64,000 nt of DNA, taken from the NCBI GenBank assembly GCA_048213135.1, contig PS015203.1, forward strand, positions 1-64,000, in the 5' to 3' direction. Position numbers and translations under genes: made by a program. The first letter of the stretch is position 1; each line of letters begins with the position of its first letter. Source of the DNA: Reclinomonas americana ATCC 50394 (Eukaryota). Shown here piece by piece: positions 12,176 through 61,858 of this stretch. The notes below the pieces were generated by a model that saw only the letters and a program-made list of their open reading frames with translations, searched no databases and was not told the DNA's origin.

Positions 12176-13091
12176 ATGTCGCGCAGTGCTCCTCTCCTCC
12201 TCTTCCTCTTCCTGCTCTGCCTTGTGTGTAGTGTGGCGCACGGCTTGTACCAGTGCACGTCCGACGCGCAGTGTAATGCGCCGTTTGGTTACTGCAGAAA
12301 GTTGTGTGTTTGTGCGTGTGCATTTGTTCGCTGCAGCGTCTGGTTTTCATTCTCTCACACTCCTTCTTCGGAACCCCCCTCTCTCACAGTGCCACGTCCT
12401 CCTGCGTGTGCGGAAACCGTAGCAACGGCAGCGCGAATCTCAACCGCGGTGATCGCTGTCAATGCTTCGCAGGAGGCACACGCGGAGAGTGCAACTCGCG
12501 ACCATTCCCCTTGAACTATTCGCACGCCGGCGCCGTCGGCACATGCATGTCGGCCGACGCCTGTGTGGCTGCCACCGATCTTCTCGCACCCAGTCCACCT
12601 CCAGCTGGTGGTGGGAGCTGCTCAGCTGACCAGCAGTGTAATTCTCCGTTGCGTTCGTTGTTCGTGTGTCGGCAGAAGATGATGATGAAGGTTTGACTGC
12701 CGCTGACATTCACAAACAACGCTGACACAGTTATGGTTTCTGTCGCTCTGGCGCCTGCTTCTGTGGCAACCGCAGCGACCTCTCCACCAACCTCAACCGC
12801 GGACGCTTCTGCCAGTGCTTTGCTGGCGGCCCGAACGGCCAGTGTCAAACGGTGCCGTATCCCAACAACTACTTTTACAACGGTATCTGCGGCTCGGCAA
12901 GTGCCTGTGTCGCGAACACGGAGGCCACCGACTGCAGCGCGTGTCCAAGTGGGCTGTATCAGGTGGCCGCCTGCAATGTCGCCACCGGAACCAATCGCAC
13001 GTGTTCGCCTTGTTCCACCGGCAACTGCCCGGCTGGTCAGTTCCAGTCGGCCGCCTGCTCGGCCACCGCCGACCGCGTCTGCTCTCTGTGC
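12176..13091 (+). CDS. N-terminus of a secreted Cys-rich protein (signal peptide, CxxDxQCNxP[FY]G[YF]C repeats, TNFR-like repeats); probably the 5' end of the 6868-9485 gene
   Basis: Signal peptide MSRSAPLLLFLFLLCLVCSVAHG; ends in CSTGNCPAGQFQSAACSATADRVCSLC, the same repeat as at 9300-9485. Confidence 0.75.
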
Positions 13092-13144
13092 NNNNNNNNN
13101 NNNNNNNNNNNAGCATGAGCGAGTGAGATGATGCCAACAATTGA

Positions 13145-16100
13145 TTAACTGATGCACACGCCCGCAGCGTACGTACCGAGCGAGAGGTTGAGCATTTCGC
13201 CCACTGTGTCGGTCGACACAAAGTCCTGCTCTAGCATCGAGTCGAGTCGCTGCGTTGTGGCCGCAGACTGCACGCGATCCACGTTGGTGAGCGCCACCAA
13301 CACAACAAGTCTCGCAAACTGCGGCCGCGCACTCACCACTCCAGCACTTGCCACAGCTGCATCGCCGTACGACAATCTTGCGCCGAGAAGCACTGCACGA
13401 CCACCAAAAATATGAGTGCGCTGGATGGATGCCACGTCATGTTACCAACACTGAGGCAACTCACCGCTGTTGACTTCCTCGGGCGCCATCGGAGTCATCG
13501 GGCCCCAGTGCGACAGCGTGGCGGCCGGGAGCGGTCCAGGGACTGCCAATGGGTCCTCCTCACCCACCACATCCACATGCAGCGGCACCTGGATGCTCGC
13601 TTCACCACTGGAGACCAGGGGTGAAGGTGACGGTGGTGCGACAGGCGATCGAGGAGCAACGCGCCGTGGTGGAGACGACGGCGGTGACGACGGCGATGCT
13701 GCAGACGACGGCGGCGATTGCGGAACCGAACCTTGCAGTTCTGCCAGTCGACGGGAATGAGAACAACAACAACAACAACAACAGAGAAGAGAGAGAGAGA
13801 GGGAGGGAAGTGAGAACAGCAAACGCACCACCGATGAGAGAGTTGATGACCACGGCGTCTGTGTGTCTGGCTCGCGCCAGTACAATCGCGCGAGCTCGCA
13901 CTCCTTGAATCAGAGCTTGTAGTTGGTCACGGATGCCGGCAGGCGCTTGGTTTAGCTGTATTCGTATCACACAGTGAGACTCATTTCCGGGGAAAATTGT
14001 GTGCTCTCNNNNNNNNNNNNNNNNNNNNACAGTGTCTCACCAATGGATTCTCCATCGACACGGCCGAGATAAACACCGAGGCAGACGACCTGTCACACAA
14101 CTCCACGTGAGACAACACATTGTCAAGGAGAGCATCGCCGACGCGATTTTCGAACTCACCCATCACCCGAGTCGCCGTCGAGCATCGTCGCCACATTGGT
14201 CAAAAACATCCAGGCATACCTGCATCACAAAGCACGAGTGAACCAACTGACCACTGTACACACACACGCTCCACTCGTCCACGTCACGCAACAGCTGGAA
14301 CTCTGCCGGCAGCACAATGACGGCAAAGTCGACAAACTTGAGAGCCTCGGCAATCACATTGAGGTCGAGCGATTCAGGCGACGAGAACGAGCGAATCTGC
14401 GTCGCAGCAGCGAGAGAGAGAGAGAGAGAGAGAGGGTTCAGCCCTTGATGCACCACAGCAGCAGTACCGGTAATTCGCAACACACCAGCTCCGTCAGGAT
14501 CAGAGGCCAGAACGAAATCAAATTCGAGGGAGAGATGCGCGTAATCAACACCCGGAGAGTGAAGAACACCTGCTTCTGCACCTCCGCAGTAGCTCCCGCA
14601 TACGAGCCCTTCAAACAGTCGACTGCACAGCACGAATAAGCAATTCGCCTCTCCCTCCTCCTCCCCTCTCTCCTCGATACTCACCGAGTCGCTCCTGGAT
14701 GGCTGTCAGTTGCGTCAAGTAGAAATCAAAGGGTGCGGCGAACATGGCGAACGAGATGCGTTGCAGAAGGCGAGCGCGCAGAATGCCCTCGGACTCGCGC
14801 GACGCAAACACGTTCATGCTCTGGGTGCTGTTGAATTTGGCTGCGCACACACACACACGCGAATCAGTTTTGCCCGCTTCTCACATCATCGATATTGCAC
14901 AGGAGTGCACAGACGCACCCAACAAGTCCGAGAACGACGGCTTCTCCTGGCACAACATATTGTGCACAATCGGCTTCCACGTCGATATTGTGCTCTTGTC
15001 GGACTCGAAGAAACGGTGGTCGAGGAAAATGTCCCAGGCCTCCTTCCGGAACGCCTTGACCATGTACGGATACTTGCAGAAGGAGCCCATGAGCACCACA
15101 CCAGAGTAGATGTGCTGGCGCGAACTGTGACCCGCGGAGCAAATGAGCGACGAGAGTGCGCAAGTGCGCCTAATGGGAAAGCAACACTGACCACCGCTTC
15201 TTGGAGGTGGTCGGGCGCAGCAGGTTCATCAGCTGCTGAATAGCACCCGAGACCACACTGACGGCGCGGTCCTTGTCGTCAAAGATGCGATCCACGAAAC
15301 CGGCGAGGAACTCGGACAGCGTCATCAGTGGACTCTGCGGGAAGGCGGAACATGAGAAAAGGAGGCCAGTAACATGCACAAGAAGATACATGCTCCGCCG
15401 CACCTGCGACGAGTCGCGCGTCGGATCGACCGTGTCGTCGAGAGCGAACGAAGCTGACGGATCTTGCAGTCTGTGTAGGTGAAGATTAGCCGCAACACTG
15501 GGTGATGAATCAACACAACAATGCCAGCCGCAACTGTGAGCTCGCCGCCTCCTTCACACCACGCTGGAATGTCTTGACCGCAACAGAAATGGAGAACTCT
15601 ACATGCCGACCCACAATATCCTGTCACGAGATATACACGAGGAGTGGTGAGCCGAGTCAAGTCAGGCAGCATGCCCTCCCGCTGCGCGGGGCTGACGTAC
15701 CAGCACGTCGCGCTTGACCTTGCGGTCGTCTAGCACCGCTGGTACCCGTCGAAGCAAGTCCTTCAGGATCCTGCCGACAACACATGAGCACCACCACACA
15801 AATTTGTGCTTCACATACGCGCACGCACCGCAAATGCGCGACGTGGGACCACGGGTGCATGACGCGATTCATGTTGCTGTGCGAGACCACATCCTTCATG
15901 TGCTGACACAACACTGGCACCACCGCGCGCAGCGAGTCGGGCATGGCACACTGACACACGTAGTGCCACAGGAAGCTGTACACGGCTGTCTCTGACCTAT
16001 TGTCACCGTGTCAGACGAAAACATCACTAGCAGAGAGAACCATCAAAGCACCACATACGCACACAGTGGCGTAGAGAGACTGCAGAGCAGCTAGTGTCGC

Positions 16101-19100: not shown

Positions 19101-22079
19101 GGGTCGGCAGGAACGCCGTACAGAGTCTCCGTCTGCATTCGCACGGTCATACACGTGCACAAATTTTCACCACGACGAAGACGACGACGACGCAACATCG
19201 GCTGGACCCTCGGACGGGGGCGGATCCTGCGAGGCCACCGACGGCAGATCCTCGTGCGACGCAATCGCCTTGGCCACGCTGCTCGTGGAGACTGTGGTCT
19301 CCAAAATCACCAACACCGACGTGATGAGACGCACAATCTCAGGCAAGTCCTCGGTGGCGTGTGCCTGCACTGCGACCACGCGTGCACTAAAGAATTCGGC
19401 GAGGAACTTTTGGTAGAGCAGGCGCGCATGCACCACGTCACAAAACGCCGGCAATACACGGGACGACACGCCATACGACATGTCCATGCGATTGATCTGG
19501 CGAGGTTTCCCCGCAAGTCAGCACTGCATCAAACGACACGAGATGACAGGGAAACTCGGATGCACTGACCAGCTTCAACGCCAGCTGCAGTGCCGCGTAA
19601 ATCATGAGGAAGTCTGCCTCGTGCACGTAGTCCTGTGGGGAAGAAGTGATGATGAGTATCTCGCAGGTGTCATCATCCGCAGTTGTTTCACACGCAACGA
19701 AGCAAAACTTGGTCACCGACAGCAGCATCCGCGGAAAGTGTTTCCACACCACGGCCTCGCTCTTCGGCAGCACGTCAAGCGTGTAAATCAGCATGTGGAA
19801 GCGCTGTGCGATGCAGCGTGGGCGTGAGTTTCTAGCCGTGCTCGGTACAGTGTCAAAACTCGACAAGTCACCTCGACATCACCACTGTCCGTGATGTTTG
19901 TGGTGGCCAGCAGCGACTCGATGCACATCCACACATCCTCGTAGGTGACGAGCTCAAAGAACCGCTGCTGCGCCTCGGTCAGCTGCGCGACGACCCCATG
20001 GGAGTCAGCCACAAAACTGCAACGTATCGAGTGCACGTATCAATTGCACACAAAACACACCGCCCCGTTTGACATGTAGATTGCGCGCAGTGCCGGCACC
20101 ACAATGTACGGCACAATGTCCATGTCGATGAGCTCCGAGCGCGACACAATGTTGGTCGCCACGCGGAAGGCGCGGTCCAGAATGGCGGCGTTGACCTTGC
20201 TCGTGTTGACGGCAGCACCCGAGGATGCAGCATCGCCACTCACACTCGTGTCCGCACTACCGCCACTCCCAGCCGCTCCCGCTGCTCCCCCAGCAGAGCC
20301 ACCCGCCGATGAGCCGGCATTCGGCATCGGCAGTGCCGAGACCAGGAACAGATTCTGTGAATATAAACACCCGTCGATGCATCAGCCTCCAACGCAGGAT
20401 TAGATAGAAACAGTAGCTCGCACCTGCAACCCTTCGATCAGGAAGCCGCGGGAGTACTCCATGAAATACTCACGGTCGAATTCGCCACCACCGTACAGCC
20501 AACTAAAGAAGCGACGCATGATGGGAACCTCCCGTGAGGCCAGTGTCGGCAACGAGGCCTTGAGCAGCAACAGCTTGTGACTCGGATCAAACATGCTGTG
20601 TTGGATGGTGAGTTGCGGAGCTCACACGAGACAGATAATGTCGCTGTGACGCAACTCGTCGCTGAACGGCACCAGAGTGGTGATAAAGTCCAGTGATCCA
20701 CGCTGCACCAACACGGCCTGATCTTGCACGCAGGCACACAGCGACTTGAGCACCACACCGCGTTGTCGTTGCAGGCAGTTGCGCATGACTGTGTCGACGG
20801 AAGCATGAGGAATACACTTCCATCATCACCGTCTGGACACATACACGCACACACCTGGGGCACCGTCCTTTGACAACTTCTCGTTGAGGTAGTTGAAGCC
20901 GCCGAGTCGGTACTGTGCACACAACAAGAGACCCTCGAAGATGGCGCGGTAAAACTCGTCTGGGCTCGTCATCTCCTCAATGTAGTCCAGAAAGTCGCGG
21001 ACCTGACGGGAGACACAAGTGGTCAGTTGCGCTGTGGCGGCATGCATGTCGCGCGTGAGTGCACGTGCCTTGTCAAACACATCGGTGCCTGGCTCCTCCA
21101 TGCCAGGCAGCAGAGCCAACACCAGACCCGGCAACGCCGGAGCGAGTGCCGCTTGCAACTTGTCCACCAAGTGCTCACGAATCAGGGCCAGCACTTGCGG
21201 CTGTACGCATACATGCACAGTCACGACCACTACCTCTCACACACAATCACACGCACACGCGTGCGCACCCTAATCTGCACAGAGGCTCGCTGAAAGAATG
21301 GAAACAAGCCGACGCTGTACAGCGGCAGATCCCGCGCCAGTGTGGACGGCTGTACATTCACCGACACGCGTAATGAGCAAAGGAAGCGCGCGTGATGCCT
21401 GTGCCTCGAGAGCGACAACGTGCCTCCATGCGATTCAAGATAATGGCATACGTTTCCAACACCTTCATGTGCACGCCACCCGGCAGCGCCGGATTCAAGC
21501 ACTGCGCCAGTCGCTTGGCCACCGTGACCTTGTCCTGCGCACCGCTGTGAGGGAAGGCACACACACATACAGCATGCAACAGCAGCAAGCAGCGCAACTG
21601 GCACAGTGGTGAACTCGTTGAAGCGTTGAAACGTCTGCATGCACTTAATGAGCCATCGCAATCACAGCAGCGAACAACAACAACAACAACAGAGCGACAG
21701 TGCCTTTTGCAGTCTTTGCAAGCAGCGAATGAGATCGGCCCTGCACAAGAACACACACAATCAATCACACTCTGTCGTGCTGAACAAGCCGCGTGCACAT
21801 GAGCGTGCGAGGGAGAGACGCACCACTCGCGCACTTGATCAAACAATCTGCAATCACATCATCAATGTGAGAAATGCATGCGCACGCTTGCATCACACGA
21901 CATACTCACCGCAACACCGCCTGCATCTCATCCGCGAACGGGCGATAGCGCGACTTGCGCGATTCTGCATGTGCGTGTGTGAGAGAGAGCAAGAACCAAA
22001 ATGAACAACATGGCGCACACGCGCTCACACAGACACACACGCGTGCTCGCCACTCACCCATCTCCTCCATTGACTCCAT
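13145..22079 (-). CDS. DOP1: Dopey family protein (DOP1), many exons, spanning two gaps
   Basis: Dopey_N signature [63 protein letters not shown]; Dopey_[19 protein letters not shown]; probable terminal MLEQDF motif near 13230 (3' end approximate). Confidence 0.9.
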
Positions 22080-22172
22080 CGCTAACAATGCGCACACGTG
22101 TGTGTGCGTGTGTGTATCGATGGCAATCACAGTCGAGCGCGGATCGACTAAAATCTTCACTTGCCAGTCACA

Positions 22173-23404: not shown

Positions 23405-24499
<1,095 letters not shown>

Positions 24500-24596: not shown

Positions 24597-27500
24597 TCAA
24601 AAGTCCAGTGGGAACTTGGCTTGCTGTGCTCGGCAGGCAGTGGTGAGTGAGTTGGCCACTGGCAATAGAAGAAAGACAGAGCTCACCGTGTAGCCGGACT
24701 GATGCAAGTAATTCAACTCGTCAGTCATGTATTCGGCATACTGCTTACGGTTGACTCCGGCGCAGCACTCCTGAATGACGCGCAACAGGTGCTCAAACGT
24801 GTACGCGTAACTCGTCGCACCTGCACGAAAGGATGGTGAGTATCACAGATACATTGGAGAGTATCAGCAGTGACGACAGCGCGCACCGAGGGCCAGCACT
24901 TTCGAGGTGCGCACGCCGACATTGTGGGACTCGCTGCCAAAGACCACCACTGGAGTCATTGCACCGTCCCTTCGCATGTCGGTGATGTGGCTATGTGGTG
25001 TCAAAATAAGCACTCAGAAGGAAACAATCTCGGCTGCGTGCGAACAGTGACGCAACCTGCGCATGGCACGAAGCAACTGGCACGCTTGCGCCTCAGAGTT
25101 GATGCGGTGCGTTCCACCATAGTACGTGATCACTGCACCGCTCGTAGTGAGAACGGACTGCACAGCCTGCTCTGCTCTTGCAACACGCACCGAGATCGAA
25201 TGGGATTTGGGCCTTGGCAGCGCGCACAAGCACCCGAAGAGCTCGCTTGATGGTTGTTGCGTGTGTCACCACGGCGCACTTGGCGTCGGTGGTGTCCAGC
25301 CACTGGCGGCGAGTGATGAACAAGTAGTCGCGTACACATCGCTGGAAGAAGCGGGTGATGAGCACGCTCCACTTGTACTGCGGTCCGACCCACAAAATCT
25401 TGCGCTCATAGAGCAGGCGGCCGACTCTGCACCAGAGTAAGCACATTGCATGTATTGTGCGAAAACAAAGATTGGTGGGTACAACAAACTTGAGCACTGG
25501 GTTCGTGGCCTCGTTGATTCTCGACAGGTAGCCTTCGACGCCGGTAAAGTCGGTGAATCCTGTACAGCACGACAATGTGTCAGTCACAGTACTAGTCGCC
25601 AGGCATGCCAGTGAGTGCATTCTAATGCCACACCAACCTTTGGAGTTCCACGTCAGCACATGCACACCCTCGTGCCTCCGATAGTACTCGATCTGCATGG
25701 GTTTTGCACGAATAAACAACGAGCAGTCCTGAACAAAGAGATCTCCACCGTTTCACACAAAGAAACCTGATGCGGCTTCATGTCCGGCAGAATGGCATAC
25801 GCCGCCGGCGTGTCGCCACCAAACATGGACATCATTTCTGTGGTCGCCAAGAATTATCAGCACCGTGGGAGAACGCAGAATCACGCGTGTATGGTCTCAC
25901 CACTGCGCAGCTCATTCAAGTAGCCGTCGCTGAAGCTGAAGCCGACAAACAGCAGCGTGCAGGTCGACATGACCGACATGAGGAATGTGCGATACGGTGT
26001 CCTGCAAAAAACAACAGTGGTCGTCGTGAGCTTGGAATGCTTACTCAGTGAGAAGGCACCGACGATGGAAGAGTCGCACTTGTACAGCAGGTTGCGGTAT
26101 CCCTGACGGGTGAACACCAATGGACCAGTGCCCGTGGTCGATCCGTGCACCTGCACGACCGGTGGAACATTGGTGGCTGTGCACATAACCGTCAGACCTC
26201 GCTGCCCCTCAATGATAGCGCGACAGAAACTAACCATAGTCGAACTCTTCCGCCTTCATCACCTCGTTCCACCAGCGGTCTACGGAAGGCGGACGGAGGA
26301 AAGAGCGGAAAGCGTCGGCGCCGTCGAACGGTGTCTTGCCCGACAGCAGCGAGTCGAAATTGGTCGTCAACTGCACAGCCAGAGATGAGATGTGCACGAA
26401 TATGCGCATGACACGGCTCGATAATGAGTGCGACGCACGATTCCACGGAAAGGAATGGAGAGCAAGAGTCGCAAGCGGTTTTTCATCTTGGGTGGAAGAG
26501 TGCCACCTGCAGAGAGTGGCACAGATGACATCAGTGGTCTTACCAGTGTTGTCTTCTCGAATGAGGATGCGGAGTACGCACCTGGCAGCGTCAGCACTTG
26601 ACCACACAGCAGTTTGAGCTGCACGCGGTCCAAGTTCAGTACTGAGAAAATGTTGAGAGAGACACGATAACACGAAACTTGCTCGGGTCCGAGGTGGTCT
26701 TCGAGGACTTGCGCAGCGGCATCGAACTCACGAGCATCGAGGAACGACAGCGTGCCGGCAACATCCGCTTCCGAAAACTGATCCGGATATAGCTCGCGCG
26801 CGAGGCGGGCCATGTTGCGCACAAGGCCATCCCATCTATTTACCAAGTGGTGAGTTAGTCATATCCGACATGAGTGCCAACCACGACAACACGCAACGTG
26901 GGGAAACCGGCCGGTGCCGAGAAGCCACTGCCCACGAATGCCACCACATTGCCGCGCCGCACAGCTTCAAGGAGCTCTGGAGGAACGTCGCTGAGGTTGG
27001 CGGTGGTCTCAATGAGATCGAGATCCGTACGTTCCATCAACATGGGGCCGCCGGGTGTGAGCGGAGGCTCCGACAGGGAGCGCTCCATGTGCATGCCGAA
27101 AATGTCGTCGCTGGACGACCCAGAATCCGAGACTGCGCGCGGCAATGAGCACCACTCACACAGCACAACAGAGACACCCCAAAACGCACACACGGATCCG
27201 GAATCCATCGATGACTGCGGCGTCTCCGATCGACTCGGCGGGTGTAATGGGGCTGCCGATGCAAAGTCGCCGGGTTTGGCCATCCACGTGGGTACGCGCA
27301 TGTGCGCTGCGCAGAACAAGTCGCCCTGAGGCCAGCACGATTGAGCAACGACGAAGAGTGCTCACACCAAACCTTCAACTTGCGATATCGCGTCGTCATC
27401 GCCGTCATCGTCATCGAGGTCGTCAGCAAACAGATCGTGGTCATCGGAAGCCGCCGCAGAATCTGCTATGCAAGCAGTGTCGTGAGAAGAGGAACGGGGG

Positions 27501-28496: not shown

Positions 28497-31293
28497 TTAC
28501 GAAACTGGTGAATTGCCTCGATCTGCCATGTATTCGAGGAGGTCGCGCTGCGAGGCAGCCGCACAGCACTCCTCCATGGCGCGCAACAGCTGCTCAAAGG
28601 TGTACGTGTAACTCGCCGCTCCTGCGCTCACACACGAACGTCAGCATCTGCCCAGCCTCAGTGGCCGTCGCGACCAACGCACCGAGATTGAGTACTTTGC
28701 GAACACGCATGCCCACATTTGGTGACTTGCTACCAAACACAATCACTGGCGTCAGTGCGTCGTCGCCTCCGCGATCTGTAATGCGCCTGTAGCACCAAGA
28801 AAACAGAGATCGGCATGGTGACAATGCACACGACGACCGACAGAGTGACTACTCACGCCCGCATCGCTCGCAGGACCTTGCACGCCACGGCTTCGTCTCC
28901 CTGCTGCCGTGTGCCACCGTAGTGCGTGATCACTGCACAGTGTACAACAGTGAGATGGATCGTACAGCGACACAGCGACGGCAGCTGCAGAAACGCACCC
29001 AAGTCGAATCCGCGCTCTCTCTTCAACAACTCCATCGCGCGACCCATGCGCGTAACAGCCGTCACAATGCAGCACTTGGGGTCGCTCGTCTCCAGCCATT
29101 GTCGTTGAGTGATGAATAGGTAGTCGCGAACGCATCGCCGCAAGAACTTTTGAATCAGCACCGACCACCTGTGTGCATTTGTGAGTGTGAATGCACGATC
29201 CACCTCTGGCGCGATAAGCAATGGAGTGTCGCCGCAACTTGTAATGCGGCCCAATCCACAGCAACCGGCGCTCATGCAGCAGGCGTCCAATTCTGTCTCG
29301 TCTTTCAGCACAACTGGCAGCAACAGCGACAACAGAGAGACAGACGAGACCACACCGAAGTACTGGGTTGGTGGCCGCATTGATGCGTGACAGGTAGCCC
29401 TCCACTCCACTCCAATCCGTGTAACCTACTTGCGCTTAGCATCAACGAGCCGAAGGCACGATGAAAACAACGCAAATAAACCTTTTGTGTCCCAAGTCAA
29501 CACATGCACACCCTCGTGTCGGCGGTAATGCGCAACCTACAGCGACAGCAGTGAGCAAGGCGATGAGCAGACTATTATCCTCGCGATCGCATCGCTTCAA
29601 AACCTGGTGTGGCTCCATGTCGGGCAGGATCGCGTACGCTCCGGGTCGATCGCCACCAAACATGGACATCATTTCTGCGGGTACGGGGGAGGAGATGCTC
29701 AGCACCCAGTTCGTTTCAGCGAGCAGAACACCGACGTACCACTGCGCAGCTCGTTCAGGTAGCCGTCGGTGAAGCTGAATCCGATGAACAGCAGAGTGCA
29801 GGTCGAGAAAACCGACATGAGGAATGTACGATACGGCGTGCTGCGACGCATGGAGTTGGATGAGATGACTTGGCATGCGCGATATGCAGCAACGAGTTCT
29901 CCCCTTACCGATACAGCAGATTGCGGTAGCCCTGGCGGGTGAACACCAACGGGCCATGGCCAGAGGTGGAACCGTGCACTTGCAAGATCGGTGGCACATT
30001 CGTGGCTGCGCGTGAAGCAACAGTCGGTCGATCTTGGTCACAAGGGAAGAGAGGAGAGGCAGAGCCACTCACCATAGTCAAACTCTTCGGCCTTCATCAC
30101 CTGCCACAAGCGATGTAAACAAACGAGTTAGAACGGTCCACGATGTGCATCACCAACTGCAATCATGATCACCTCGTTCCACCAGCGATCCACAGGAGGT
30201 GGCCGCAAGAACGAGCGGAATGCATCGGCACCATCGAATGGGGTCTTTCCGGGCAGCAGCTGATCAAAGTTGGTGGTCAACTGCGCGACGGATGACGTCA
30301 ATATCAGCGGAACGGAACACCAGAAGAACCATGCAGCTTGGCACGCAACAATGCCGCGGAACGGAATGGAAAGCAGCAGGCGCAGTCGGTTCTTCATGGC
30401 CGGCGGCAGCACTCCGTCTGCATGTACAGATACACAGTCAATGACAAGCACCGCAGGAGATCATGTGCATGAGAACTCACCAGGAAGACTCAGGCCCTCG
30501 GCCACGAGCGCCTTGAGCTGCTACAGGATGAGCACGAGCAAGGGCATATCATCCACCACTTTTGCCGACACGCACCTGCTCAGGGCCCAGGTAGTCCTCC
30601 AACACCTGCGCAGCGGCATCGAACTCGCGCCTTCTGAGAAACGCCAGCGTGCTCTGCACCTTGTCCTCTTGAAACTGTTCCGGGTACACCTCGTGGGCGC
30701 GATGCGCGACCTGTCGCACCAGCCCGTCCCACCTGCCCCAGCCGCTCGAGTAAGCACACCACCGCATCACCCTTGTCGGCGCGTCATGACACGACGCAAC
30801 GTCGGAAAGCCAGCGGGCGCGGAGAAACCACTGCCGACAAACGCCACCACATTGCCTCGCGCCACCTCCTGCAGCAGCTCATCGGGAATGCCACTCAGCT
30901 CCGCCGTCGTCTCACACAGATCCAGATCCGACCGCTCCATCTGCATGACACCACCGGCCGCACTCGGCGTCGATGGGCACTGTTCCGACAACACACGCTG
31001 CAGATCGGCGAAATCCTCTGCGCCTCCACCACTGCCGTTGCTGGCTGTCGTACGCACACACACGCAGATGAGCAAGCAGCGTGGCACACAGAGAACCATA
31101 ATAAGCACACACGCACAAGTGTCTGACGGCGACGAGCGGCTGGAGTTGGGCGGACTCGGCACCAAATCTGGCTCCGCCGCCGCCCATGCATCAAGACGCG
31201 GAGTCGCTGCGATACATAATACAGTGAGCATCGTTGCTATGTACACCACGCACAGAGACAGACGCAACGCTCTTCCTCCTCTTCTCCGTCCAT
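28497..31293 (-). CDS. SIR2_2-type domain + receiver-like C-terminal domain (paralog B, no zf-UBP)
   Basis: Same motifs as paralog A ([58 protein letters not shown]); stop at 28497-28499; start codon inferred. Confidence 0.8.
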
Positions 31294-31487
31294 CAACTCG
31301 GCATGAACACCACTGCCACTGGCCACTGAATGGCGCAGATACCGATCATCGCCTGCAGCGTCCGCGGCTGCTGTTGCTGTGGGAGCAGCAGCAGCAGTAG
31401 TGGCCCAGATAACGCGACGTGGTGATCGCTCGGCTTCACTCATTGTCGCTGATTACGTCCTGTGATCGTCCTCGCGCGTTTCCGATC

Positions 31488-42834: not shown

Positions 42835-45696
42835 ATGCGTTTGGTGACAGTCAGCACGACGGCGCTGGATCAGTGGGCGATGGATTTCGAGGGCAACCTC
42901 GCTCGTTGCGTTTGCTTGTCTCCTCCTCCACACGAGCGTGCTTGCATGCGTGTCTGCACTCGTCTGTGGCGGGAGACGCAGAGTGCGAATCTCCCTTTTC
43001 CCTCGCTGTGTTTGTGTTGTGTGTGATCACGCACTGCTGCACATGTCACGCACACTTTCCCACTCACTGTGTGTGTGTGCGTGCGTGTGCGCGACTGCAG
43101 GCACANNNNNNNNNNNNNNNNNNNNTTGATGTGGTTGAATGGTTGGTACAGGGCGCGAGTGTGTGTAGTGTGTGCCCTCGGCTGAACACGAGGTGTGCGT
43201 GTGCACCAGGTGTGGACATTGTGGCCAATGGCTCCGGCAGTCACCACCAGCTGCGCAAGCTGCACCAGCGCGTGCAGCTCATCAATGGCTCCACTGCCAA
43301 GGTGCGTCCACTCTCATTCATGTGTGGATGTGGTTGCTGATGATCTCGTCTTCTGTCAGTGTGGAGGTGTGTATCTGTATGCCAACCAGCAGGGCTGCGA
43401 CGGCGGCCGCCTGTATTTCGACGGCTGCGCCATGGTGTCGGTCAACGGCAACGTGATTGCGCAGGGCAGTCAGTTCTCGGTCAACGACATTGAGGTGGGT
43501 GTGAGAGAGAAAGAGCGAGGGAGAGAGACAAGGGCTATTTTCTCATCTGACATGACTCTCGCGATGCAGGTCGTCACCGCCACCATTGACCTGGACCAAA
43601 TACGCAGCCGTCGTGGAGCGGCCATGAGCCATGGTGCGCAGGCGGCCGAGTGTCAGGTTCTGCCGCGCATCGCGGTCGATTTCTCGCTCACCGAGCCCAG
43701 TGCGCACTTTAGCCGCACCGTCTCCAGTTGCGCACTCACGACTGCACTACACTCTTTGTGCATTGCTGACAACTCTGGGTCGAGCAGGCCCGATTGATGT
43801 CTTCTATCACTGCCCGGAGGAGGAGATTGCCCTCGGTCCGGCCTGCTGGCTGTGGGATTACCTGCGGCGATCGGGTGCCAGTGCGTACCTGTCACCATTC
43901 TCTCTCTATCCTCCCTGCCCTTGACTCACTCACCTTCATCTTTGCAGGTGGCTTCTTCTTGCCGCTGTCGGGTGGAGCCGATTCGTCGTCCACATGTGCC
44001 ATTGTGGGCTCCATGTGCCAGCTGGTGGCCGCTGCTGCCAAGATCGGCAACGAGCGAGTGATTGCCGACGCTCGTCGCATCGTGGGCGACCCGGAGTACG
44101 TGCCACTCGAGGCGAAGGAGTTTGTCAATCGCATCATGCACACCACGTACATGGGCACTGTGAATAGGTATGCTAGCATTCGTGGTGTGTTGGTGCCGCC
44201 ATTGTGTCACTAATCGCTGAGAGCAGCTCGGAGGAAACGTGCACACGAGCACGGAAGCTGGCCGAGGAGGTGTGTGTGAGAGAGAGAAGGAAAGCCAAGG
44301 CGTTTCCATTGATGGCTTCCTATCTCTCACTAAGTGTGTGTGCGCTCATGTGTGTGTGGCTGTCTGCTCCCTCGGAATCCCTCAGTGCCTCTCTGTTTCC
44401 CCTTTCTGCTTTCTCCCTGTCCCTCTCTCTCCTTTCTGCCTTCTCCATCGCCTTCCCTTTGACTCGCCCTCATCTCATGAACCCCACAGGTCGGCTGCCA
44501 CCACTTGGACGTGCGCATTGACCCGATTGTGACAGCCATGTATGACATGTTTGTGTCGGCCACTGGATTTGAGCCGCATTTCCGTTCACAAGGAGGTGCA
44601 GTGTTCGCCTGTGTGTGCAATCACTCTCCCTCCCCCGTCTCACCGCCGGTGTACAGGCTCTGCGGAGGAGAACCTCGCCCTGCAAAACATTCAGGCTCGA
44701 CAGGTTCCTTATTGTGGTGTCCGCCGTTGGAGTGCATGGATCTGACCACCGTTCCTCTCCCGCCCCTCCCCGCAGCGCATGGTGTTCTCGTATTTCTTGG
44801 CACAGTTGCTGCTCAAGACGCGCGGTCGTCGCGGCTGGCTGCTGGTGCTCGGCTCCGCCAATGTCGACGAGGCCTTGCGTGGATACATGACCAAGTACGA
44901 CTGCTCGTCGGCCGACATCAACCCAATCGGCGGCATTTCCAAGACCGACATTAAGCGCTTCCTGCGGTGGGCTGCCGTGAACCTCGGTTATCCGACTCTG
45001 GGTGAAGTTGCGCAGCGAGTGGTGATGACGGTGGTGGTGGTGGTGGAGATGGTGAGTTGCTCACCCTCAATGCAGGTGGTGGCTGCGCCGCCGACCGCCG
45101 AGCTGGAACCGATTGAGGCGAATTACACGCAGACCGACGAGGCCGACATGGGCATGACGTACGACGAGCTGAGCGAGGTTGGTGTCGTGTTCGCGAGGTC
45201 ATTTCTATCACCCTCACTCACCCGGCCTGTCACCAGTTTGGCCGTCTGCGCAAGGTCCACATGTGTGGCCCCGTGTCCATGTTTGAGCGACTGGTGCTCA
45301 AGTGGCAGCACCTGTCGGTGCCGGTGGTGGCCGAAAAGGTGTGATCGCATGCATGCGCGTCGGCGTTGTTCACGTCTCATCCCTCGTTTGCAGGTCAAGT
45401 TCTTCTTCCGCGCCTACGCCATGAACCGACACAAGATGACCACGCTGACGCCGTCGTACCACGCCGAGTCGTACTCTCCAGAGGACAACCGCTTCGACCT
45501 GCGGCAGTTCCTCTACAACACGCGCTTCCCGTGGCAGTTCCGCGAAATCGATCGCCTCGTGGAGATGGCCGCCGATGCACCACCACCCGACACTGCTGGC
45601 GAAGGCTCTTCGTCCTCTGCCCCGATGGCCTCGATCGCCACACCCGGTGAGCTTCGCAGCCCACTATCGTCGTCGTTCCTTGTCGCGCGTCTGTGA
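42835..45696 (+). CDS. NADSYN1: Glutamine-dependent NAD+ synthetase (part of the glutaminase domain lost in gap)
   Basis: [91 protein letters not shown]. Confidence 0.97.
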
Positions 45697-48664: not shown

Positions 48665-49134
48665 ATGTTGCTCGCACGCCGACGCTTGCATCAGCACTCG
48701 CCCACTGCATTACTCCGCTCCGCACAGCACATCGCCATGTCTCACGGACACGTCAAACAGGCACGCACGCATGTCTCTCTCCCTCGCGCGCACATGTCCA
48801 TCGCTCTCACACTCTCACAGGAAGGCTCTCGCGCGCCCGACGAGCTCCTCCTCAAGTTGGCCGCCTACGCCACCTCCTACAAGGTCACCAATGCCGACAC
48901 GCTGACCACGGCGCGGTATTGCCTCATTGATGCTATCGGTAATGCATGCATGCATGCATGCACGAGACACACTGATGCATACTCTCACACACACACACTT
49001 GCACGCGCACAGGATGCGGTCTGGCCGCACTCGAGTACCCGCAGTGCCTGCGTCTGTTGGGCCCTGTTGTCCCAGGCACAGTGGTGCCGAATGGCGTGCA
49101 TGTGCCTGGCACTGATGTTGCGTTGCATTCTTTC

Positions 49135-49170
<36 letters not shown>

Positions 49171-50198
49171 GAAGATTAACGTGCGTGCCTGTGCGTAGTT
49201 TGAGCTGGACCCGATCACTGGCGCCTTCAACATTGGCGCCTGTGTGCGCTGGCTCGACTGGAACGACACCTTCCTTGGCAAGGAGTGGGGTCATCCGTCG
49301 GACAACTGCGGAGCGATTCTGGCGGTCGCCGAGTACGTGTCGCGTCAGCGTATGGCTGCTGGTGCGACTATGATAGATCGAGAATGTGTGAGTGCGCGTG
49401 GCTCACTGTGCTGTGCAGGTCAGGAGCCACTGACGATGCGCGTTGTGCTCGACGCCATGGTCAAGGCGTACGAGATTCAGGTGCGCATGCAAGTGTGGTG
49501 TGTGTTTCGTGTGCGGAGACACGGGGTTTCATTGTTTGGTGGTGCAGGGCCGCATCGCCATTGAGAATGCCTTCAACGGCATCGGCTTGGATCATGTCAT
49601 CTTGGTGCGCATCGCCTCGACGGCAGTGGCTGCCGATTTGCTCGGTGAGAACTTGTGCATTTTACTCTCCCCCGTGCCCATCCGCTCACTGTGCCCACCA
49701 ACAGGCTGCTCGCTCGAGGAGACGGTGAATGCTGTCAGCCATGCGTTCATCGACGGCGGCGCCATGCGTTGCTACCGGCACTACCCCAACACCGGCATCC
49801 GCAAGTGCTGGGCCGCCGGTGACGCCACCTCTCGTGCTGTCTTCCACGCCATCAACGCCAAGAAAGGTGAAGTGATCTGGCTGCACGGTGATGTTTGTAC
49901 TCGTTGCTTATTGATGGCGCGCAGGTGAAATGGGCTACGCCGCGGCGCTGAGTGTGCCACGATGGGGCTTCTACGATGTGTACATGCCAGTGCATCTGAC
50001 GCAGCCGCTCGATCACTACATCATGGACAACATTCTGTTCAAGGCCTCGTTCCCGGCCGAGTTCCACGCGCAGACGGCGGTGGAGTGCGCCTTTGCGCTG
50101 CACCCGGAGGTGGCACCCCGCCTCGATGAGGTGCAGGAGGTGCACATTTGGACGCAGGAGTCCGCCGTGCGCATCATCGACAAGAAGGGCCCGTTGAC
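48665..50198 (+). CDS. prpD: 2-methylcitrate dehydratase, mitochondrial-type presequence (3' truncated by gap)
   Basis: [65 protein letters not shown]. Confidence 0.95.
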
Positions 50199-50262
50199 GT
50201 TGCGTGATTGTGTATTATCCGTGATGCTTGGAGGCGACTAGCCNNNNNNNNNNNNNNNNNNN

Positions 50263-51157
50263 NGTTCTCACTCAGAAAAAAGAAGAATACACAAGCGATG
50301 CTGTGTGAGACAACCTGCAAGCAACGTGAATCACCTTTTGCAGAGCACCAACAACGATAGCCGACGGCGACGCAGCCGCCGCGCCCTCCAAGCCGAACGA
50401 CATGCGCAATCGCTGAATGCACAACGACATCTCCTTCTCCGCCTCATCGCCACCCCCCACAGAAGACGACGATGACGACTGGCCACCACTCGCAGCGGGC
50501 GCTGCCGCAGTCTTTGCAGTCACAGCAGGAGCAGCAGCAGTGGTGGTCGTCTTTGTCGCCACATCCGATCCCGTCGCCGCCTGCATCATCTGCAACACCT
50601 GCATCTCTGTCGCCAGCCAGTCCAGCAACAACAGGCGCATCTCACTCTCCGGCAGCTCCTCGCTCTCAAACAGCTCCGAGTACGGGAAGTCTACATGCAA
50701 GCAGTAAGTACGTGGAGTCTGACAACAGCAGCAATGAGAGGGGGGACACTCACTCACCTTCCCGCGATGCAGCATAATCAAATGCACTGAGCGATGCAAC
50801 CGATCGATCAGAGTTGCCGCGCTCTAGCATGGCAACAATGGTCGATGTCTGTCAATGAGAGAGACAGTGAGAGAGAAAGGCAATGTGAGAGAGGCCGAAT
50901 ATACACCCTTGTTATGTTTTTGTCACACACCATTCGCTCGTACTCGCGTGCGTCGCCGTCGGTGGCATCGACAATGCTCTGCAGTTGCTCGACTTTGGTG
51001 GATTCGGCGCACAGCCTGTTGTGTAGTGTGTGAGTCTGAGAGAGTGAGAAATGGCGCGCCATGTGATTCGAGTGGTGGTGTGCGAGAGTGGTGATGGCAC
51101 AAGTGCGCACCGCAAGTCCACCAGTGCCTCTAGCACGTCCTCAACGAGCGTTTCCAT
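50263..51157 (-). CDS. FAM98-family protein (3' truncated by gap)
   Basis: METLVEDVLEALVDL start and RLLLLDWLATEMQ motif resemble FAM98 conserved blocks (recognised from memory, not searched). Confidence 0.6.
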
Positions 51158-54600: not shown

Positions 54601-56265
54601 GACTGGAGTGACACGAGCCCGCTGTGGACCGACGAGATCAAGCGAGCGCTCGATGTGAGGGTCGACGCCGACGATGGCACCTTCTGGATGAGCTGGTCGG
54701 ATTTCACGAAGCACTTTGTGTCGCTCAACGTGTGCTGGTGAGTGTGGTTGTGAGTGCGTGGAGGATTCTGTGCTCGGGCGCCACTGAACGCGAAACTGCG
54801 CACAGCGTCGCTGGCTGGTACGAGAAGCGCCACAAGGCCCGCTTTGTGCGCGGCAGCAAGACCGTGTACTCGGACGCCGCCTTCGACCTGACGGTGACGG
54901 AGCCGACGCACGTGTTCCTGACGGTGCATCAGGAGGACCAGCGCGTCCACGGTGCCATCAAGTGCCGTCCGTACCTCGACATGGGTGTGGTGGTGCTGAA
55001 GGCCGTGGCCGGTGGCTACGAGATTGTCGACGAGAAGCTGCCCGACCTGGACCGCCAGACGGAGCTCGAAGTTGACCTGCCGCCGGGCCAGTACATTGTG
55101 TACCCGAGGTGCGGTGGTGTTGTGTTTGCACTGTGTTGTTTGGGAACCAACATCCTTTTACTGCTTTGATGTTTTCAGAACCACGGGCTGCCGCATGTTT
55201 CGTCACGTCCTGATGCACGGCGACTGTTGTGTGTAGTGTGCTCACTCTTTCGTGTGTACAGGGAGCTGGCTGCCGATGAGGCGCGGGCTCGTGAGCGCAT
55301 CACCATTGCTCTCAACGAGGACAATGACTTCTCGCACGAAGTCACCTTTACCATTTATGTGCGTCCATGGCATCAATGACTCCCCAGTCAGTGACTCTGC
55401 TGATGCATGTGTTTCTGGTCGCGATGTAGGACATTTTCCGCAAGTACGACATTACCATGGACGAGCTGCTTTCGTTTGAGGAGTTTGCCGTGTTCATTCG
55501 CGAGTCGTCACCCGACAACCACGAGCTGACGAAGGCCGAGTGGGACGCTTATACGCGCGACTTCAACTCGACGCCGCAGGGTCTGTCGGCACGCGGTCTG
55601 CTCATGTACTTCAAGGACTTGTTGCGCAAGAAGGGCGAGGTAGCGTCACTGTCGGCCGAGTCCTCACCTGTGAATGTGTGACGAGATTTTTCTCATACGG
55701 TGGTGGTGGTGGTGGTGGTACAGGCTGCGGTGTGGCGCGTCCTCAACAAGCTGGGCTACGACAACTCGCTGTTCTCAGCAGCCTCGCGCTGCTACGTGCT
55801 GGCCCTGCACGCGGACAAGAAGATTCGTCTGAAGCGCTCGGATCCTGTGCCCGCCGCTCAGCAGGAGGAGTTCGACCGCGAGGTATCGGCTCTCAGCGTG
55901 CTGCGCAACGGCCACGCTTCGGACCCCGATGCCGAGGTGGTTGTGTACTCGTCCTACTCGACGTTGCGTCGTCACCAACAGTCTATTCGCAGTGATGTTT
56001 TTTAAAGGGTCCGCTCATTTTCCCTCTTCCTCGCCGCAGTGACGCACACTGCTACAGCTACGTGCTGGAGAACCGCGGTCTGGACTTTGACATTGAGGCG
56101 ACGCTCGACAGCTCCTCCGTGCAGTCGATGCACGCCCTCGGCGGTTCGTTCGTTTCCACCCTCGTGGTGCCGCAGGGACAGGCTGTGTTCTTCCACCACA
56201 TTCAGGCCACCCGCACCGCCCGCGCCTACTCGAGCTCGTGGTCAATGAGCTGGACAAGCACGTAA
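51656..56265 (+). CDS. Calpain-family cysteine protease (N-terminal beta domain, CysPc, domain III, EF-hand, C-terminal beta domain)
   Basis: IRQGALGDCW (Cys), LVPGHAYTLL (His), LRNPWG (Asn), LEKAYAKLHGNY; EF-hand DITMDELLSFEEF; stop at 56263-56265. Confidence 0.93.
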
Positions 56266-58790: not shown

Positions 58791-58983
58791 GTCAACACGA
58801 GTGTGACAAAGAGAGAGCGAGAGAGTGACACGCACCTGCTGCACTCGCTGAACTGCGCGTTGGCACACATTCAGCACAGACGACAGCAACATGCCTCTCT
58901 TGTGCACAATAAAACGACGCAAGGGGCGCGTCCTGTCCAACTTCGCCGGATTTCATTCATTACTTTGTGAGCGCGCAAACAAC

Positions 58984-59957
58984 ATGGCTTCATTCCAAGA
59001 GATCGTCGACGGAGTGTTCCTCGGACCCGCCTTTGTGCACGAGCTAAAGGTCCACGCGTGCGCGCCTCTGTGCTTGTCTGTCTTTGTCGCTCACTGTGTC
59101 TTGCACACGCAGGCGGATGAGCTCGAGTCACGCGGGATCACCGACGTGTTTCCGATCACGATGCGCGTGGCCGAGTTCCATCCATCACGATTCACCTATC
59201 ACAGTGTGACACTGGAGGATGAGGCCGAGGCGCCCATTGAGCAAGTTGCGGTCGTGCATGGAAGAGCAAGCAGGCAGTGGACAGCAACTCATGTATATAC
59301 TTAGCATTTGCATGCGGTGGCCGATGGCATTCATGCGGCGTTGCAGCAGACGGAACCGCGCCCGGGACGAGTGTATGTGCACTGTGAGGCCGGCATCTCG
59401 CGCTCGTCGAGCATGGTGTTGGCGTATTTGGTCAAATATCGCGTTGCGTGCCTCCTCTGCTCGTGTCTGTCTCTCTCTCTCTCTCGTGTGCGCTGACTGT
59501 GTGAGCGTAGGACATGACACTGCGTGATGCTGTTGCGTTTGGAGGTCGTCGTCGTCTGCTGCTGCGATGTTGTTGGCGCTCATGCTGTGTTGTGTTCCAG
59601 TTTGCGCATGCGCGTGAGAGAAGACCCGTCATTGAGCCGAATGTGGGCTTCTGGGCCAAGCTGGCCGAGTTTGAGCAGGAGGTGCGGGGCAGCAAGTCGT
59701 ACACCCGCGAGGACTACACCATCGGTGAGCAGACGAGTCGTCTATTTGCGTGCGTCTACACAACAAGTGTGCTTATTTCTCACATGCGCAGACATGATGC
59801 GCCCGATGTGCCCGCGCATTCCGCCGGTGAGTCAAAGCGTGGACGGTGTGGTGCGGTCTTTGCCTCTCATTAACTCTGTGTGCAGGAGGAACTGCGCAAG
59901 CTGTTGGAGCAAAACAACTGGGACATCCACGCGGCGTTCAGTGCAATTTTTAGATGA
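58984..59957 (+). CDS. Dual-specificity protein phosphatase with short UBA/CUE-like C-terminal tail
   Basis: EIVDGVFLG, VYVHCEAGISRS (CX5R), RPVIEPNVGF; tail ELRKLLEQNNWDIHAAF. Confidence 0.9.
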
Positions 59958-60139
59958 TCATCTCGCTCGACGGTCGGCTGCCTCAGCACGACGTCTGCAT
60001 CTTTGCCGACCTGTGACGGGAGGAGAGGGGTTAGTGCGAACATCAGATGCGTGTGAAAAAAGGAGCAAAACAACAACAATGTACCAGAATCCAATGTCGC
60101 CAGCGACCTTGTTGCGGTTGCTCAGGATTCTGTGCACTG

Positions 60140-61858
60140 GATAGTGAGAAGCAGTGGAGTGGGGCTTAAGACAAGGAGACGGTGCGCAACGTGGACAGCT
60201 GTGTGAGAATGCCATCGCGTTGCTTGATGGTCTCGGTGACCTTGGCCTGCAGACTCGACAGCTCGGTGTTCAGAGCCGTGCGCTGCACAGTCGACATTCG
60301 TGAGACAGAGTGTGTGAGAGAGAAACAGAGTGGGCGCCGGCAGCACGCACCGTCCAGGTGGTGTAGTCCTCATTGGCGGTCGCAAACGTGAGGAACACCT
60401 GCTCATCACTGGCTTCCACATCCTGTGCGTGCGGCAGAGACAGGTGAGAACGACAAGCGGAAGACGAGGGCGAAGCTGACGCCGAATACAGACCAGAATC
60501 GTCTGCAGCGAGTCGTTCTCCACCGGCTGCACAACCGCCTCGGTTTCCACAAACTCGGCCTGCACCGGGGTCGCGTCCGAAGGCAGTTCAACCAGCGCCA
60601 CGGTGGTCAGCGCCCGCTGGATCATCACAATCTGCAAGAGGGGTGAGATCACTTGTCTCTCGATTGCACTACAGCTGCGACGGGGAACACTCACATTGTT
60701 CTGCAGCTGCGCGATGGTTGCATCTGCAGTTTCGAGCTGCAAGCGGGCATTCATCTCTTGCTCCATGAAGCGCACCTCCTCGCCCTTCCAGAACGCCAGA
60801 CTGCCTCGAGCTTCGCAGCACGTCTGTAACGAGGAGAAATGTCGATGAGGACGCCAGAAGACATCGCGTGCGACAGACGGACAACGCACCTGGATCGTCT
60901 TGCCCTCAATAATCAGGCCCGCCTTCTTGGACTGCACAGCACGAGGTAAGCGAAGCAACGGAACACATACAGGCAACAGTTACGCAACGGCGATCTCGTT
61001 GGACATGTCTTGTGCCCACGGCGGCAGGGTGGACGAGTCGGTGACACCAACCATGGCCAGTGTGGCGTAATCAGCAGCATCCTCCTCTTCCGCCTCTTCC
61101 GTCGTCTCCCCCTCGGTCTCTCCCACGGTCACGTCCACGGCCTCGTTCTCCTCCTCCTCCTCCTCCTCAATCTCCTCTTCCTCAGTCTCCCCTTCCTCAA
61201 TGTCACCTTCCTCAATCTCCTCCTCCTCCTCGGTCTCCACTTCCTCAGTCTCACCCTCCTCAATCTCCTCCTCCTCTTCGACGAACTCCTCTTCCTCCTC
61301 ATCCTCCTCCTCGGCCTCCTCCTCCTCCTCCTCTGGCTCCTCGCTGTCGGCCTCCACTTCCACCTCGTCGGCATCGGTGTCGGCAACATCGTCGAGCGAG
61401 TCGAATTCCGACTCCATGCTCACAAACTCGTTCTCCATGAGGCTGAACACCGCGTTCTCGCTCTCGACATCGACCTCCTCATCTTCTTCGTCCTCCTCAG
61501 ACACCCAACCCTCGTCGTGTTGCTCTTCCTCCTCGTCTTGCTCCTCGTCTTCCAAGGCACCCTCGGTGACGACAGCTTCCGCCGACACAGACTCGGCATT
61601 TTGCTCCTCTGCAACCACTGCCGGTGCTACTGACTGCTGCGCATCGTCGCCAGTGTACTCGCTGTCGTTCGCTGAGAAGACTAGCGGGATGAGTGCACTG
61701 TGCGTGCGAGCGCGGGAAAAAACGTATGACACGCAAGAGAACGAACCAGTGTACGACGGCGCCGGGAAGGTCGCCGAGTCCACCCGCCTGGAGAACTCCA
61801 CCACGACGAGCAGCGCCGCCACCAACACCACACTGAGAAGGATCGAGCTCCACTTCAT
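60140..61858 (-). CDS. Secreted, extremely Glu-rich protein with C-terminal coiled-coil segments
   Basis: Signal/anchor MKWSSILLSVVLVAALLVVV; ~180 aa acidic tract; heptad-like LQLETADATIAQLQNN. Confidence 0.65.

Follow-up and report, generated by a model that had tools for sequence, protein, structure and literature searches.

In a 64-kb stretch of the genome of Reclinomonas americana ATCC 50394 (positions 1 to 64,000 of contig PS015203.1, assembly GCA_048213135.1; this whole stretch is called the window below), about one intron in six appears to begin with the hexamer GTTGCG. It is very likely that this is a real and frequent class of 5' splice site (donor). The reading favoured overall, to which a probability of roughly 0.55 is given, is that the class carries a U-GCG-U core displaced by one base and that this core is read by +1-shifted pairing with the U1 small nuclear RNA (snRNA). 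The window has about 57% G+C and 14 runs of N, and multi-exon eukaryotic genes crowd both of its strands. All counts below are comparative inference inside these 64 kb, in which seven genes were looked at. Exon bases are written in lower case where three are given, a slash marks the exon-intron boundary, and position −1 is the last base of the exon.

Introns were rebuilt from spliced alignment to homologues, from comparison within a tandem pair of paralogues, and from the spacing of Pfam profile positions. For the alignments, our own protein-to-DNA spliced aligner was used, which charges the same for every GT or GC donor and likewise for every AG acceptor; no donor motif beyond GT or GC entered the rebuilding. 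The NAD synthetase gene was aligned with 40 homologues, which are the first 40 by identifier among 82 full-length sequences of at least 120 retrieved, and the genes for 2-methylcitrate dehydratase (PrpD) and calpain with 30 and 24 homologues respectively, each taken from at least 120 retrieved. Among the matches listed, the best protein identities for these three genes are 84% or lower. The resulting verified set holds 58 introns, distributed over the NAD synthetase gene (11), PrpD (6), calpain (16), paralogue A (11), paralogue B (12) and a dual-specificity phosphatase gene (2). Seven weak N-terminal calpain introns, each found in at most 6 of the 24 alignments, were left out; G stands at −1 in every one of them, and GTTGCG begins none. 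Sites of the preliminary description that could be reached by frame logic only were also kept out. The joining of coding segments by frame logic recovered many known introns and missed others (43306 was chosen for 43302), and its results were not added to the set.

All 58 introns have the GT-AG form of U2-type introns. GT/GC-AG ends were imposed in the aligner; when the splice dinucleotides were left free, it returned the same intron lengths within a few bases at 45007 (69 nt) and 49117 (82 nt, here within 2 nt). As a control, the aligner was run on metagenome sequence, at 80 loci that encode relatives of NAD synthetase with 64-83% identity. Introns were found in 25 of them and GTTGCG donors in none, which indicates that the aligner does not manufacture such donors. 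A content-based gene parser of our own, run without and with self-trained signals, placed 3-4 of the 11 NAD synthetase introns exactly, and it was used for a motif-blind ranking of hexamers only, not for counts.

GTTGCG begins 11 of the 58 verified introns. In the five fully modelled genes, it shares with GTGCGT the place of commonest donor hexamer (9 each of 56), and 9 of its 11 sense-strand occurrences there are spliced. It makes up 91 of the 8,649 GT hexamers in the window (1.05%) and is about 15-fold enriched at donors. The 91 occurrences, counted on both strands, compare with 38.7 expected from base composition and with 80 and 74 expected under 4th-order and 3rd-order Markov models, and the extended form GTTGCGT is found 38 times against 16.4 expected. 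In the motif-blind, content-only parse, GTTGCG is the top donor hexamer (8 of 109), in the output of a parser that is otherwise poor. The preliminary description, made from the letters of the window, had proposed GTTGCG as a real and frequent donor, and homology, paralogy and counts now bear this out. It had added GTTGAG to the class; this motif is not enriched, with 27 occurrences against 28-34 expected. No description of a GTTGCG or GUUGCG donor class was found by searches of the open-access literature, which a description in a genome paper, a logo in a figure or a supplement could escape.

The individual introns are listed in Table 1. The alignments with 40 homologues give the NAD synthetase gene (42.8-45.6 kb, plus strand) 11 introns of 55-220 nt. 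The donor at 43727 lies in a poorly conserved stretch, where its nearest competitor, a GT start at 43700 (GTGCGC), is chosen in 6 of 40 alignments. For the calpain intron at 55963, frame logic selects the same donor and acceptor as the alignments. Nine further calpain introns are found in 23-24 of the 24 alignments; none of them begins with GTTGCG, and all have G at −1.

The paralogues, multi-exon genes that lie in tandem on the minus strand (A, 24600-27720; B, 28700-31350), provide a comparison within the window. The exons that were tried matched no Pfam family. All frame-keeping GT-AG pairs in both copies were considered, and the junction peptides were scored against each other. This search placed introns at 11 positions common to both copies and a further intron in B only (29169-29238), which points to gain or loss after the duplication. 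The homologous introns at 26897 in A and 30800 in B both begin with GTTGCGT, and at another shared position A has atc/GTGCGT (26438) where B has att/GTTGCGT (30349). Removal of the B-only intron, whose donor reads caa/GTTGCGG, restores an equal-length match to A. The donor at 25056 in A equals in position and phase a B donor that reads ggc/GTGAGT. At most shared positions the donor hexamers of the two copies differ, for example GTTAGT against GTGAGT and GTTTCG against GTGCGT.

In the phosphatase gene, the evidence comes from the Pfam DSPc profile. The exon upstream of 59443 stops at profile position 99, that downstream of the intron at 59532 starts at position 109, and the 7-codon exon between them, together with two further residues, fills positions 100-108 exactly. 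Taken together, these comparisons of sequences make it highly probable that introns really do start at the GTTGCG(T) sites, and that these introns are of an ordinary, short GT-AG kind (57-82 nt).

In their anatomy, the GTTGCG introns resemble the others. The median length is 69 nt against 67 nt, composition is similar, and a branch-like CTSAY motif, 8-50 nt upstream of the 3' end, is found in 8 of the 11 GTTGCG introns and in 33 of the 47 others. TAG acceptors occur in 4 of 11 GTTGCG introns (49198, 59510, 26836 and 24991) and 4 of 47 others, a difference seen in a small sample and uncorrected for multiple looks. Two special kinds of intron were considered and rejected. In a mobile intron family (introners), cores would share sequence beyond the splice signals, which they do not: the mean local score between intron cores is 7.69 within the GTTGCG class, 7.85 between it and other introns, and 7.73 among the others. 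U12-type introns have the donor motif /RTATCCTT, and all 11 donors here read GTTGCG.

Among the verified introns, the base before GTTGCG is G once and another base ten times, against 38 and 9 for all other donors (Fisher p=1.6e-5). The association is also present in the 47 introns with high-confidence homologue or paralogue support (1 G and 6 non-G against 34 and 6, p=5e-4). Seen from the exon side, GTTGCG accounts for 10 of the 19 donors that follow a non-G base and for 1 of the 39 that follow G. In the window as a whole, G precedes GTTGCG at 9 of 91 occurrences; because this is only 10%, a complete lack of G among the 22-24 sites of the preliminary description is unremarkable when taken alone (approximately 0.9^22 = 0.1). 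That description held that the class is used only after a non-G exon end. This is so for every site it listed, but as a law it fails at an unlisted donor, 25056 (−), which reads cag/GTTGCGT. It also stated that non-G/GTGCG donors exist, which is confirmed at 43881, 26438, 26079 and 55359. Its further proposal, that the class compensates for a missing G, is not supported as worded: the data fit a donor with no need of G at −1 equally well, and the −1 bases of the verified GTTGCG donors (3 A, 4 C, 1 G and 3 T) match background composition. The other donors have G at −1 in 81% of cases, and their intron side is almost arbitrary; GTCCTG, GTACTC, GTAGCG and GTTCCT are all found among the 58. With good confidence, then, the association of GTTGCG donors with non-G exon ends is strong without being absolute, and it is better described as independence from G at −1.

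Several observations suggest that GTTGCG is GTGCG moved one base into the intron, as had been proposed. Of the four GTxGCGT 7-mers, only that with T is enriched (38 against 16.4 expected; A, 5 against 4.1; C, 16 against 17.9; G, 20 against 26.3). T stands at +7 in 8 of 11 GTTGCG donors and mirrors the T at +6 in 9 of 12 GTGCG donors, and the paralogous GTGCGT/GTTGCGT pair shows the two forms at a single position. GTTGCGT thus reads as the local consensus G/GTGCGT displaced downstream by one base, and its G at +1 and U at +3 are those of a shifted site. T at +3 is present in 12 of 19 non-G donors and in 9 of the 39 that follow G. Either GTGCG or GTTGCG is carried by 14 of the 19 non-G donors, and non-G donors in the normal register have GTGCG four times and GTGAG once.

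Pairing with U1 was modelled by nearest-neighbour duplex prediction, with the best value over all registers taken for each verified donor. For the canonical 5' end (ACUUACCU, as printed in Tan et al. 2016, PMC4856993), the mean predicted energies are −9.2 kcal/mol for G/GTGAG, −6.9 kcal/mol for G/GTGCG, −1.9 kcal/mol for non-G/GTGCG and −0.55 kcal/mol for non-G/GTTGCG, against −2.8 kcal/mol for random GT sites. For the proposal of a shifted or bulged U1 register, the geometry fits, but the canonical U1 end is predicted not to suffice. Insufficient canonical pairing is also indicated by the preference of non-G donors for GCG over GAG in both positions and by the absence of a shifted GTGAGT. If the canonical end forms no stable duplex, either U1 must be altered or a further factor must take part. 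In a second set of models, positions 5 and 6 of U1 were varied in all 16 combinations, and 56 donors were ranked against 870 unused sense-strand GT sites. Among the 16, a hypothetical U1 that has G at position 5 separates the two sets best, with an area under the curve (AUC) of 0.807 against 0.736 for the canonical end. With this U1, a non-G GTTGCG donor is predicted to pair as +1:C9, +3:A7, +4:U6, +5:G5, +6:C4 and +7:A3, that is, in the shifted register, with four or five contiguous pairs and energies of −4.2 to −6.2 kcal/mol. For eight non-G sites the prediction is the shifted register, and for the sole G-ended site, 25056, a bulge at +2/+3.

An Rfam search of the 64-kb window gave no family at gathering thresholds and no U1 or U6 gene. 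Below threshold (E<=1), a mir-341-like match at 62581-62676 (−; 34 bits against a threshold of 90) and a 5.8S-like match at 38347-38471 (+; 23 bits against 42) are probably due to chance.

A mechanism may be outlined from these models. The working element would be a U-GCG-U core that lies one base deeper in the intron than it does in GUGCGU. It would pair with the 5' end of U1 in a +1-shifted register, in which C9 meets the G at +1, A7 meets the U at +3, and the GCGU core follows, while the cut would still be set at GU by U6 and U5. Since C9 would be occupied by the G at +1, a G at −1 would add no pair, which fits the missing G preference. U1 of the organism would have to pair with the C of GCG, for instance through G at position 5 or as a second U1 variant; otherwise some other factor would have to help. 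That a core displaced by one base is read in a shifted U1 register is a tenable proposition at somewhat less than even odds. In these models, the variant snRNA that had been offered as one possibility appears to fit better than a shifted or bulged register on canonical U1. More specifically, and more tentatively, a diverged or additional U1, for example one with G in place of the pseudouridine at position 5 (ACGUACCU against ACUUACCU), might serve as the routine reader, in the +1-shifted register, of about every sixth intron.

Several points weigh against this account. Every junction is drawn from comparison and not from transcripts. With canonical U1, the non-G/GTTGCG donors are predicted to be bound more weakly than 81% of unused GT sites in any register, and the gain from G at position 5, which was picked post hoc, is borderline (bootstrap AUC difference 0.07, 95% interval −0.004 to 0.145). 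The shifted form of GTGAGT, which canonical U1 would favour, is not seen (GTTGAGT, 5 against 8.6 expected). One GTTGCG donor, at 25056, does follow G. A full register shift of the exon contacts would predict that −1 copies the A preference of −2; however, A stands at −1 in 3 of 11 GTTGCG donors (6 of 22 listed), while the G-ended donors have A at −2 in 20 of 39 cases. Finally, two sense-strand GTTGCG copies in exons are not spliced. That at 55621 (+) lies inside a calpain exon, 19 nt upstream of the real donor gag/GTAGCG, and that at 29536 (−) forms the first six bases of an exon, directly after a TAG acceptor.

Some explanations would do away with the class itself. Exon ends could have been misplaced, and the introns could be of the GC-AG type, starting 3 nt downstream (..GTT/GCG..) or at some other site close by. 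A shift of 3 nt leaves the frame intact, and a few alignments do choose it (1 of 30 at 49120, 4 of 40 at 43730 and 1 of 24 at 55966), yet at equal penalties the GT start is preferred by 40 to 0, 29 to 1, 15 to 4 and 8 to 1. The extra codon would moreover be an indel at 29238 and 30349 when judged by the paralogue and at 59443 and 59532 when judged by Pfam spacing, and conserved GTT would stand at exon ends in all three phases without a coding rationale. Misplacement thus seems very improbable. Even less credible are chance, composition, mobile intron copies, or a sequencing error that doubled the T of GTGCG. Bare GTTGCG is, it is true, only modestly above the high-order Markov expectation (91 against 74-80), but a hexamer that makes up 1% of GT hexamers makes up 16% of verified donors, with most of its sense-strand copies spliced (9 of 11). 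The cores are no more alike within the class (7.7) than across classes (7.9), and error, it may be reasoned, would neither track the −1 base nor recur in diverged paralogues.

The remaining alternatives accept the donors and concern how they are read. It may be that nothing is shifted, and that GUUGCG is recognised in the normal register by a U1 variant complementary to it, by U6 or U5 contacts, or by a protein, the likeness to a displaced GTGCGT being coincidental or historical (a one-base insertion into the intron that cost nothing). Such an account gains from the failure of canonical U1 to bind these sites in any register, from the background composition at −1, where no copy of the −2 A preference appears, and from the general frequency of T at +3, which 9 of 39 G-ended donors also have (for example GTTCGC, GTTGGT and GTTTCT). 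Against it stand the enrichment of T alone before GCGT and the parallel between T at +7 and T at +6, and the GCG preference also appears in non-G donors in the normal register (GTGCG 4, GTGAG 1); a preference shared by both positions points to one recogniser that reads one core in two places. Unshifted recognition is accordingly a minority view here, of perhaps appreciable but low likelihood. Rather unlikely is a bulged register, in which G at +1 and U at +2 would pair with C8 and A7 of U1, one of the U residues at +2/+3 would bulge, and the GCGU core would pair. The required UU is present, the model with G at position 5 itself predicts such pairing at the G-ended site 25056, and the register is documented in human cells (Tan et al. 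2016, PMC4856993). A bulge would nevertheless leave a −1 G free to add a pair with C9, and G is found at 1 of 11 sites against a background of 10%; eight non-G sites are shifted in the same model, and with canonical U1 neither the bulged nor the shifted duplex is predicted to be stable. The +1-shifted reading of a displaced core is the one retained.

All 24 motifs of the preliminary description are in the sequence, 23 of them at the base it gave; the remaining one, placed at about 32953 (−), begins at 32952. Its example joins were recovered in the reconstructions made here. It had also noted that a few sites beside gaps lack a visible acceptor, and 42905, 50199 and 38555 do adjoin assembly gaps. 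Table 1 gives these sites together with the unlisted one and one comparator.

Table 1. Putative GTTGCG introns and related donor motifs in the window (intron limits, or the donor where the acceptor is not given; exon end, last three exon bases).
Position	Strand	Feature	Exon end	Support
45007..45075	+	GTTGCG intron, 69 nt, phase 0, NAD synthetase gene	gaa	40/40 homologue alignments
43727..43787	+	GTTGCG intron, 61 nt, phase 1, NAD synthetase gene	cca	15/40 alignments (plurality)
49117..49198	+	GTTGCG intron, 82 nt, phase 0, TAG acceptor, PrpD gene	gat	29/30 alignments
55963..56039	+	GTTGCG intron, 77 nt, phase 2, near 3' end of calpain gene	gac	8/24 alignments (plurality)
59443..59510	+	GTTGCG intron, 68 nt, phosphatase gene	cgc	Pfam DSPc spacing
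59532..59600	+	GTTGCG intron, 69 nt, after 7-codon phosphatase exon	gct	Pfam DSPc spacing
59245..59304	+	candidate GTTGCG intron, 60 nt, TAG acceptor, phosphatase gene	caa	frame logic only
33570..33650	+	GTTGCG intron, 81 nt, phase 0, after first CBM48-like exon	gac	domain logic and typical anatomy
40880..40941	+	candidate GTTGCG intron, 62 nt, phase 2	caa	best local join, branch-like motif; frame logic only
26836..26897	−	GTTGCG intron, 62 nt, paralogue A	cac	sole frame-keeping GT-AG join; homologous to 30800 in B
30733..30800	−	GTTGCG intron, 68 nt, paralogue B	gac	joint paralogue search, 85 against 73 for next
30281..30349	−	GTTGCG intron, 69 nt, paralogue B	att	joint paralogue search, 40 against 24
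26371..26438	−	comparator: GTGCGT intron, paralogue A, where B has GTTGCGT	atc	paralogue junction search
29169..29238	−	GTTGCG intron, 70 nt, phase 2, paralogue B only	caa	A reads through the same codons
24991..25056	−	unlisted GTTGCG intron, 66 nt, phase 2, paralogue A	cag	joint paralogue search, 47 against 30
21535..21598	−	GTTGCG intron, 64 nt, phase 0, Dopey gene	cca	domain logic (next exon starts at Dopey_N position ~47-50) and typical anatomy
14220..14292	−	candidate GTTGCG intron, 73 nt, phase 2, C-terminal part of Dopey gene	gct	best local join; frame logic only
60932..60988	−	candidate GTTGCG intron, 57 nt, phase 0, after 310-codon exon	gcc	frame logic, 8 candidates, margin 2.4
42905..42910	+	GTTGCG donor after first NAD synthetase exon		homologue matches stop here; acceptor lost in gap 43106-43125
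50199..50204	+	GTTGCG donor of last visible PrpD exon		acceptor lost in gap 50244-50263
38555	+	GTTGCG donor beside assembly gap		acceptor not visible
12648	+	GTTGCG		motif presence alone
31268	−	GTTGCG		motif presence alone
33256	−	GTTGCG		motif presence alone
31738	+	GTTGAG		motif presence alone
32952	−	GTTGAG		motif presence alone

The genes behind the less well placed sites are known to differing degrees. A Pfam search of ten long open reading frames (ORFs) gave Dopey_N as its sole match, and the intron at 21598 is the only Dopey intron with domain support; its join was compared with what we take to be the human sequence. A HMMER search with one Dopey exon gave 7 matches, none a full-length Dopey protein. 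Short exons of a putative acyltransferase, of the CBM48-like gene and of the Dopey C-terminus had no Pfam match. The gene at 33570 is presumably CBM48-like from its domain pattern, although its 28-aa exon had no match in Pfam. Likewise, neither the phosphatase exon upstream of 59245 nor the gene around 40880 matched a Pfam family. In the CBM48-like gene, an apparent micro-exon of 10 nt lies at about 33881-33890 (+) between two short introns and is followed by an aag/GTTGAT donor, as far as the sequence by itself suggests. A 487-aa ORF matched only clusters of bacterial-type carboxypeptidase-regulatory-like proteins in a protein atlas.

Runs of N inside genes (43106-43125, 50244-50263, 38628-39448 and others) remove coding sequence; NAD synthetase loses about 165 codons in this way, and PrpD its C-terminal third. 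The five PrpD alignments for which spans are shown all end at 50196, at homologue residues 288-329. Elsewhere in the window, 5653-6764 (+) holds a run that would code for 42 glutamates together with cysteine-rich repeats like those of epidermal growth factor (EGF), and overlaps a 702-codon open frame on the other strand (4849-6957, −).

Few features of eukaryotic gene expression are as conserved as the 5' end of U1 and the register in which it pairs. If about a sixth of its introns begin with a motif that is beyond the reach of canonical U1 in every register, this genome would have either a diverged U1 or a different first step of 5' splice-site recognition, and could serve as a natural system for the study of register choice. 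Were a variant U1 responsible, a pairing mode that is a rarity in humans would be a standard means of intron definition, and a near-universal U1 5' end would have co-evolved with splice sites. There is also a practical consequence, in that gene finders with a single donor matrix would miss or misplace GTTGCG introns; annotation of this genome would call for a donor model with two classes, conditioned on the −1 base. The few exact introns placed by our own motif-blind parser in the NAD synthetase gene illustrate the problem.

The closest known counterpart is the +1 shifted-register 5' splice site, which Roca and Krainer reportedly described in human genes in 2009. As there, the G at +1 takes the place of the consensus G at −1, a U stands in for the consensus +2, the rest of the consensus follows one base late (GU-U-AAGU in humans, GU-U-GCGU here), and the cut stays at GU. 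However, the human +1 shifted sites pair measurably with canonical U1, and the GTTGCG sites, as far as duplex prediction goes, do not. A bulge +2/+3 register of U1 pairing was reportedly described by Roca and others in 2012. It likewise has UU at +2/+3 followed by the consensus core, and sequence alone cannot separate it from the shifted register; the missing preference for G at −1 argues for shift over bulge. The compensation between the exon and intron sides of the donor, in which the need for G at −1 depends on positions +4 to +6, is used in maximal-dependence donor models. It is recognisable here, in that donors with G at −1 tolerate a weak intron side and non-G donors carry a strong GCG core (14 of 19), but in half of the compensating sites the core is one base out of register, which compensation of the usual kind would not lead one to expect.

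Frequency sets the class apart from both human registers. According to Tan et al. (2016, NAR, PMC4856993), all validated human non-canonical U1 registers together account for 1.5% of 201,541 sites, whereas GTTGCG begins 16-19% of the verified introns, and the bulge +2/+3 register has 68 predicted sites (their Table 3), a frequency that differs by orders of magnitude. On present evidence, GTTGCG would be a new form of a non-canonical-register donor, one known as a human rarity and here a major class. Its surroundings recall another kind of genome altogether, one with a high G+C content, short introns and a G/C-rich donor core. Strict intron starts are said to have been described in Ostreococcus by Irimia and Roy in 2008, and genomes with rigid donors of that type share these three features. 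Their donors are, however, of one uniform kind, and the window instead combines a degenerate G/GT class with two strong cores that are offset from each other by one base.

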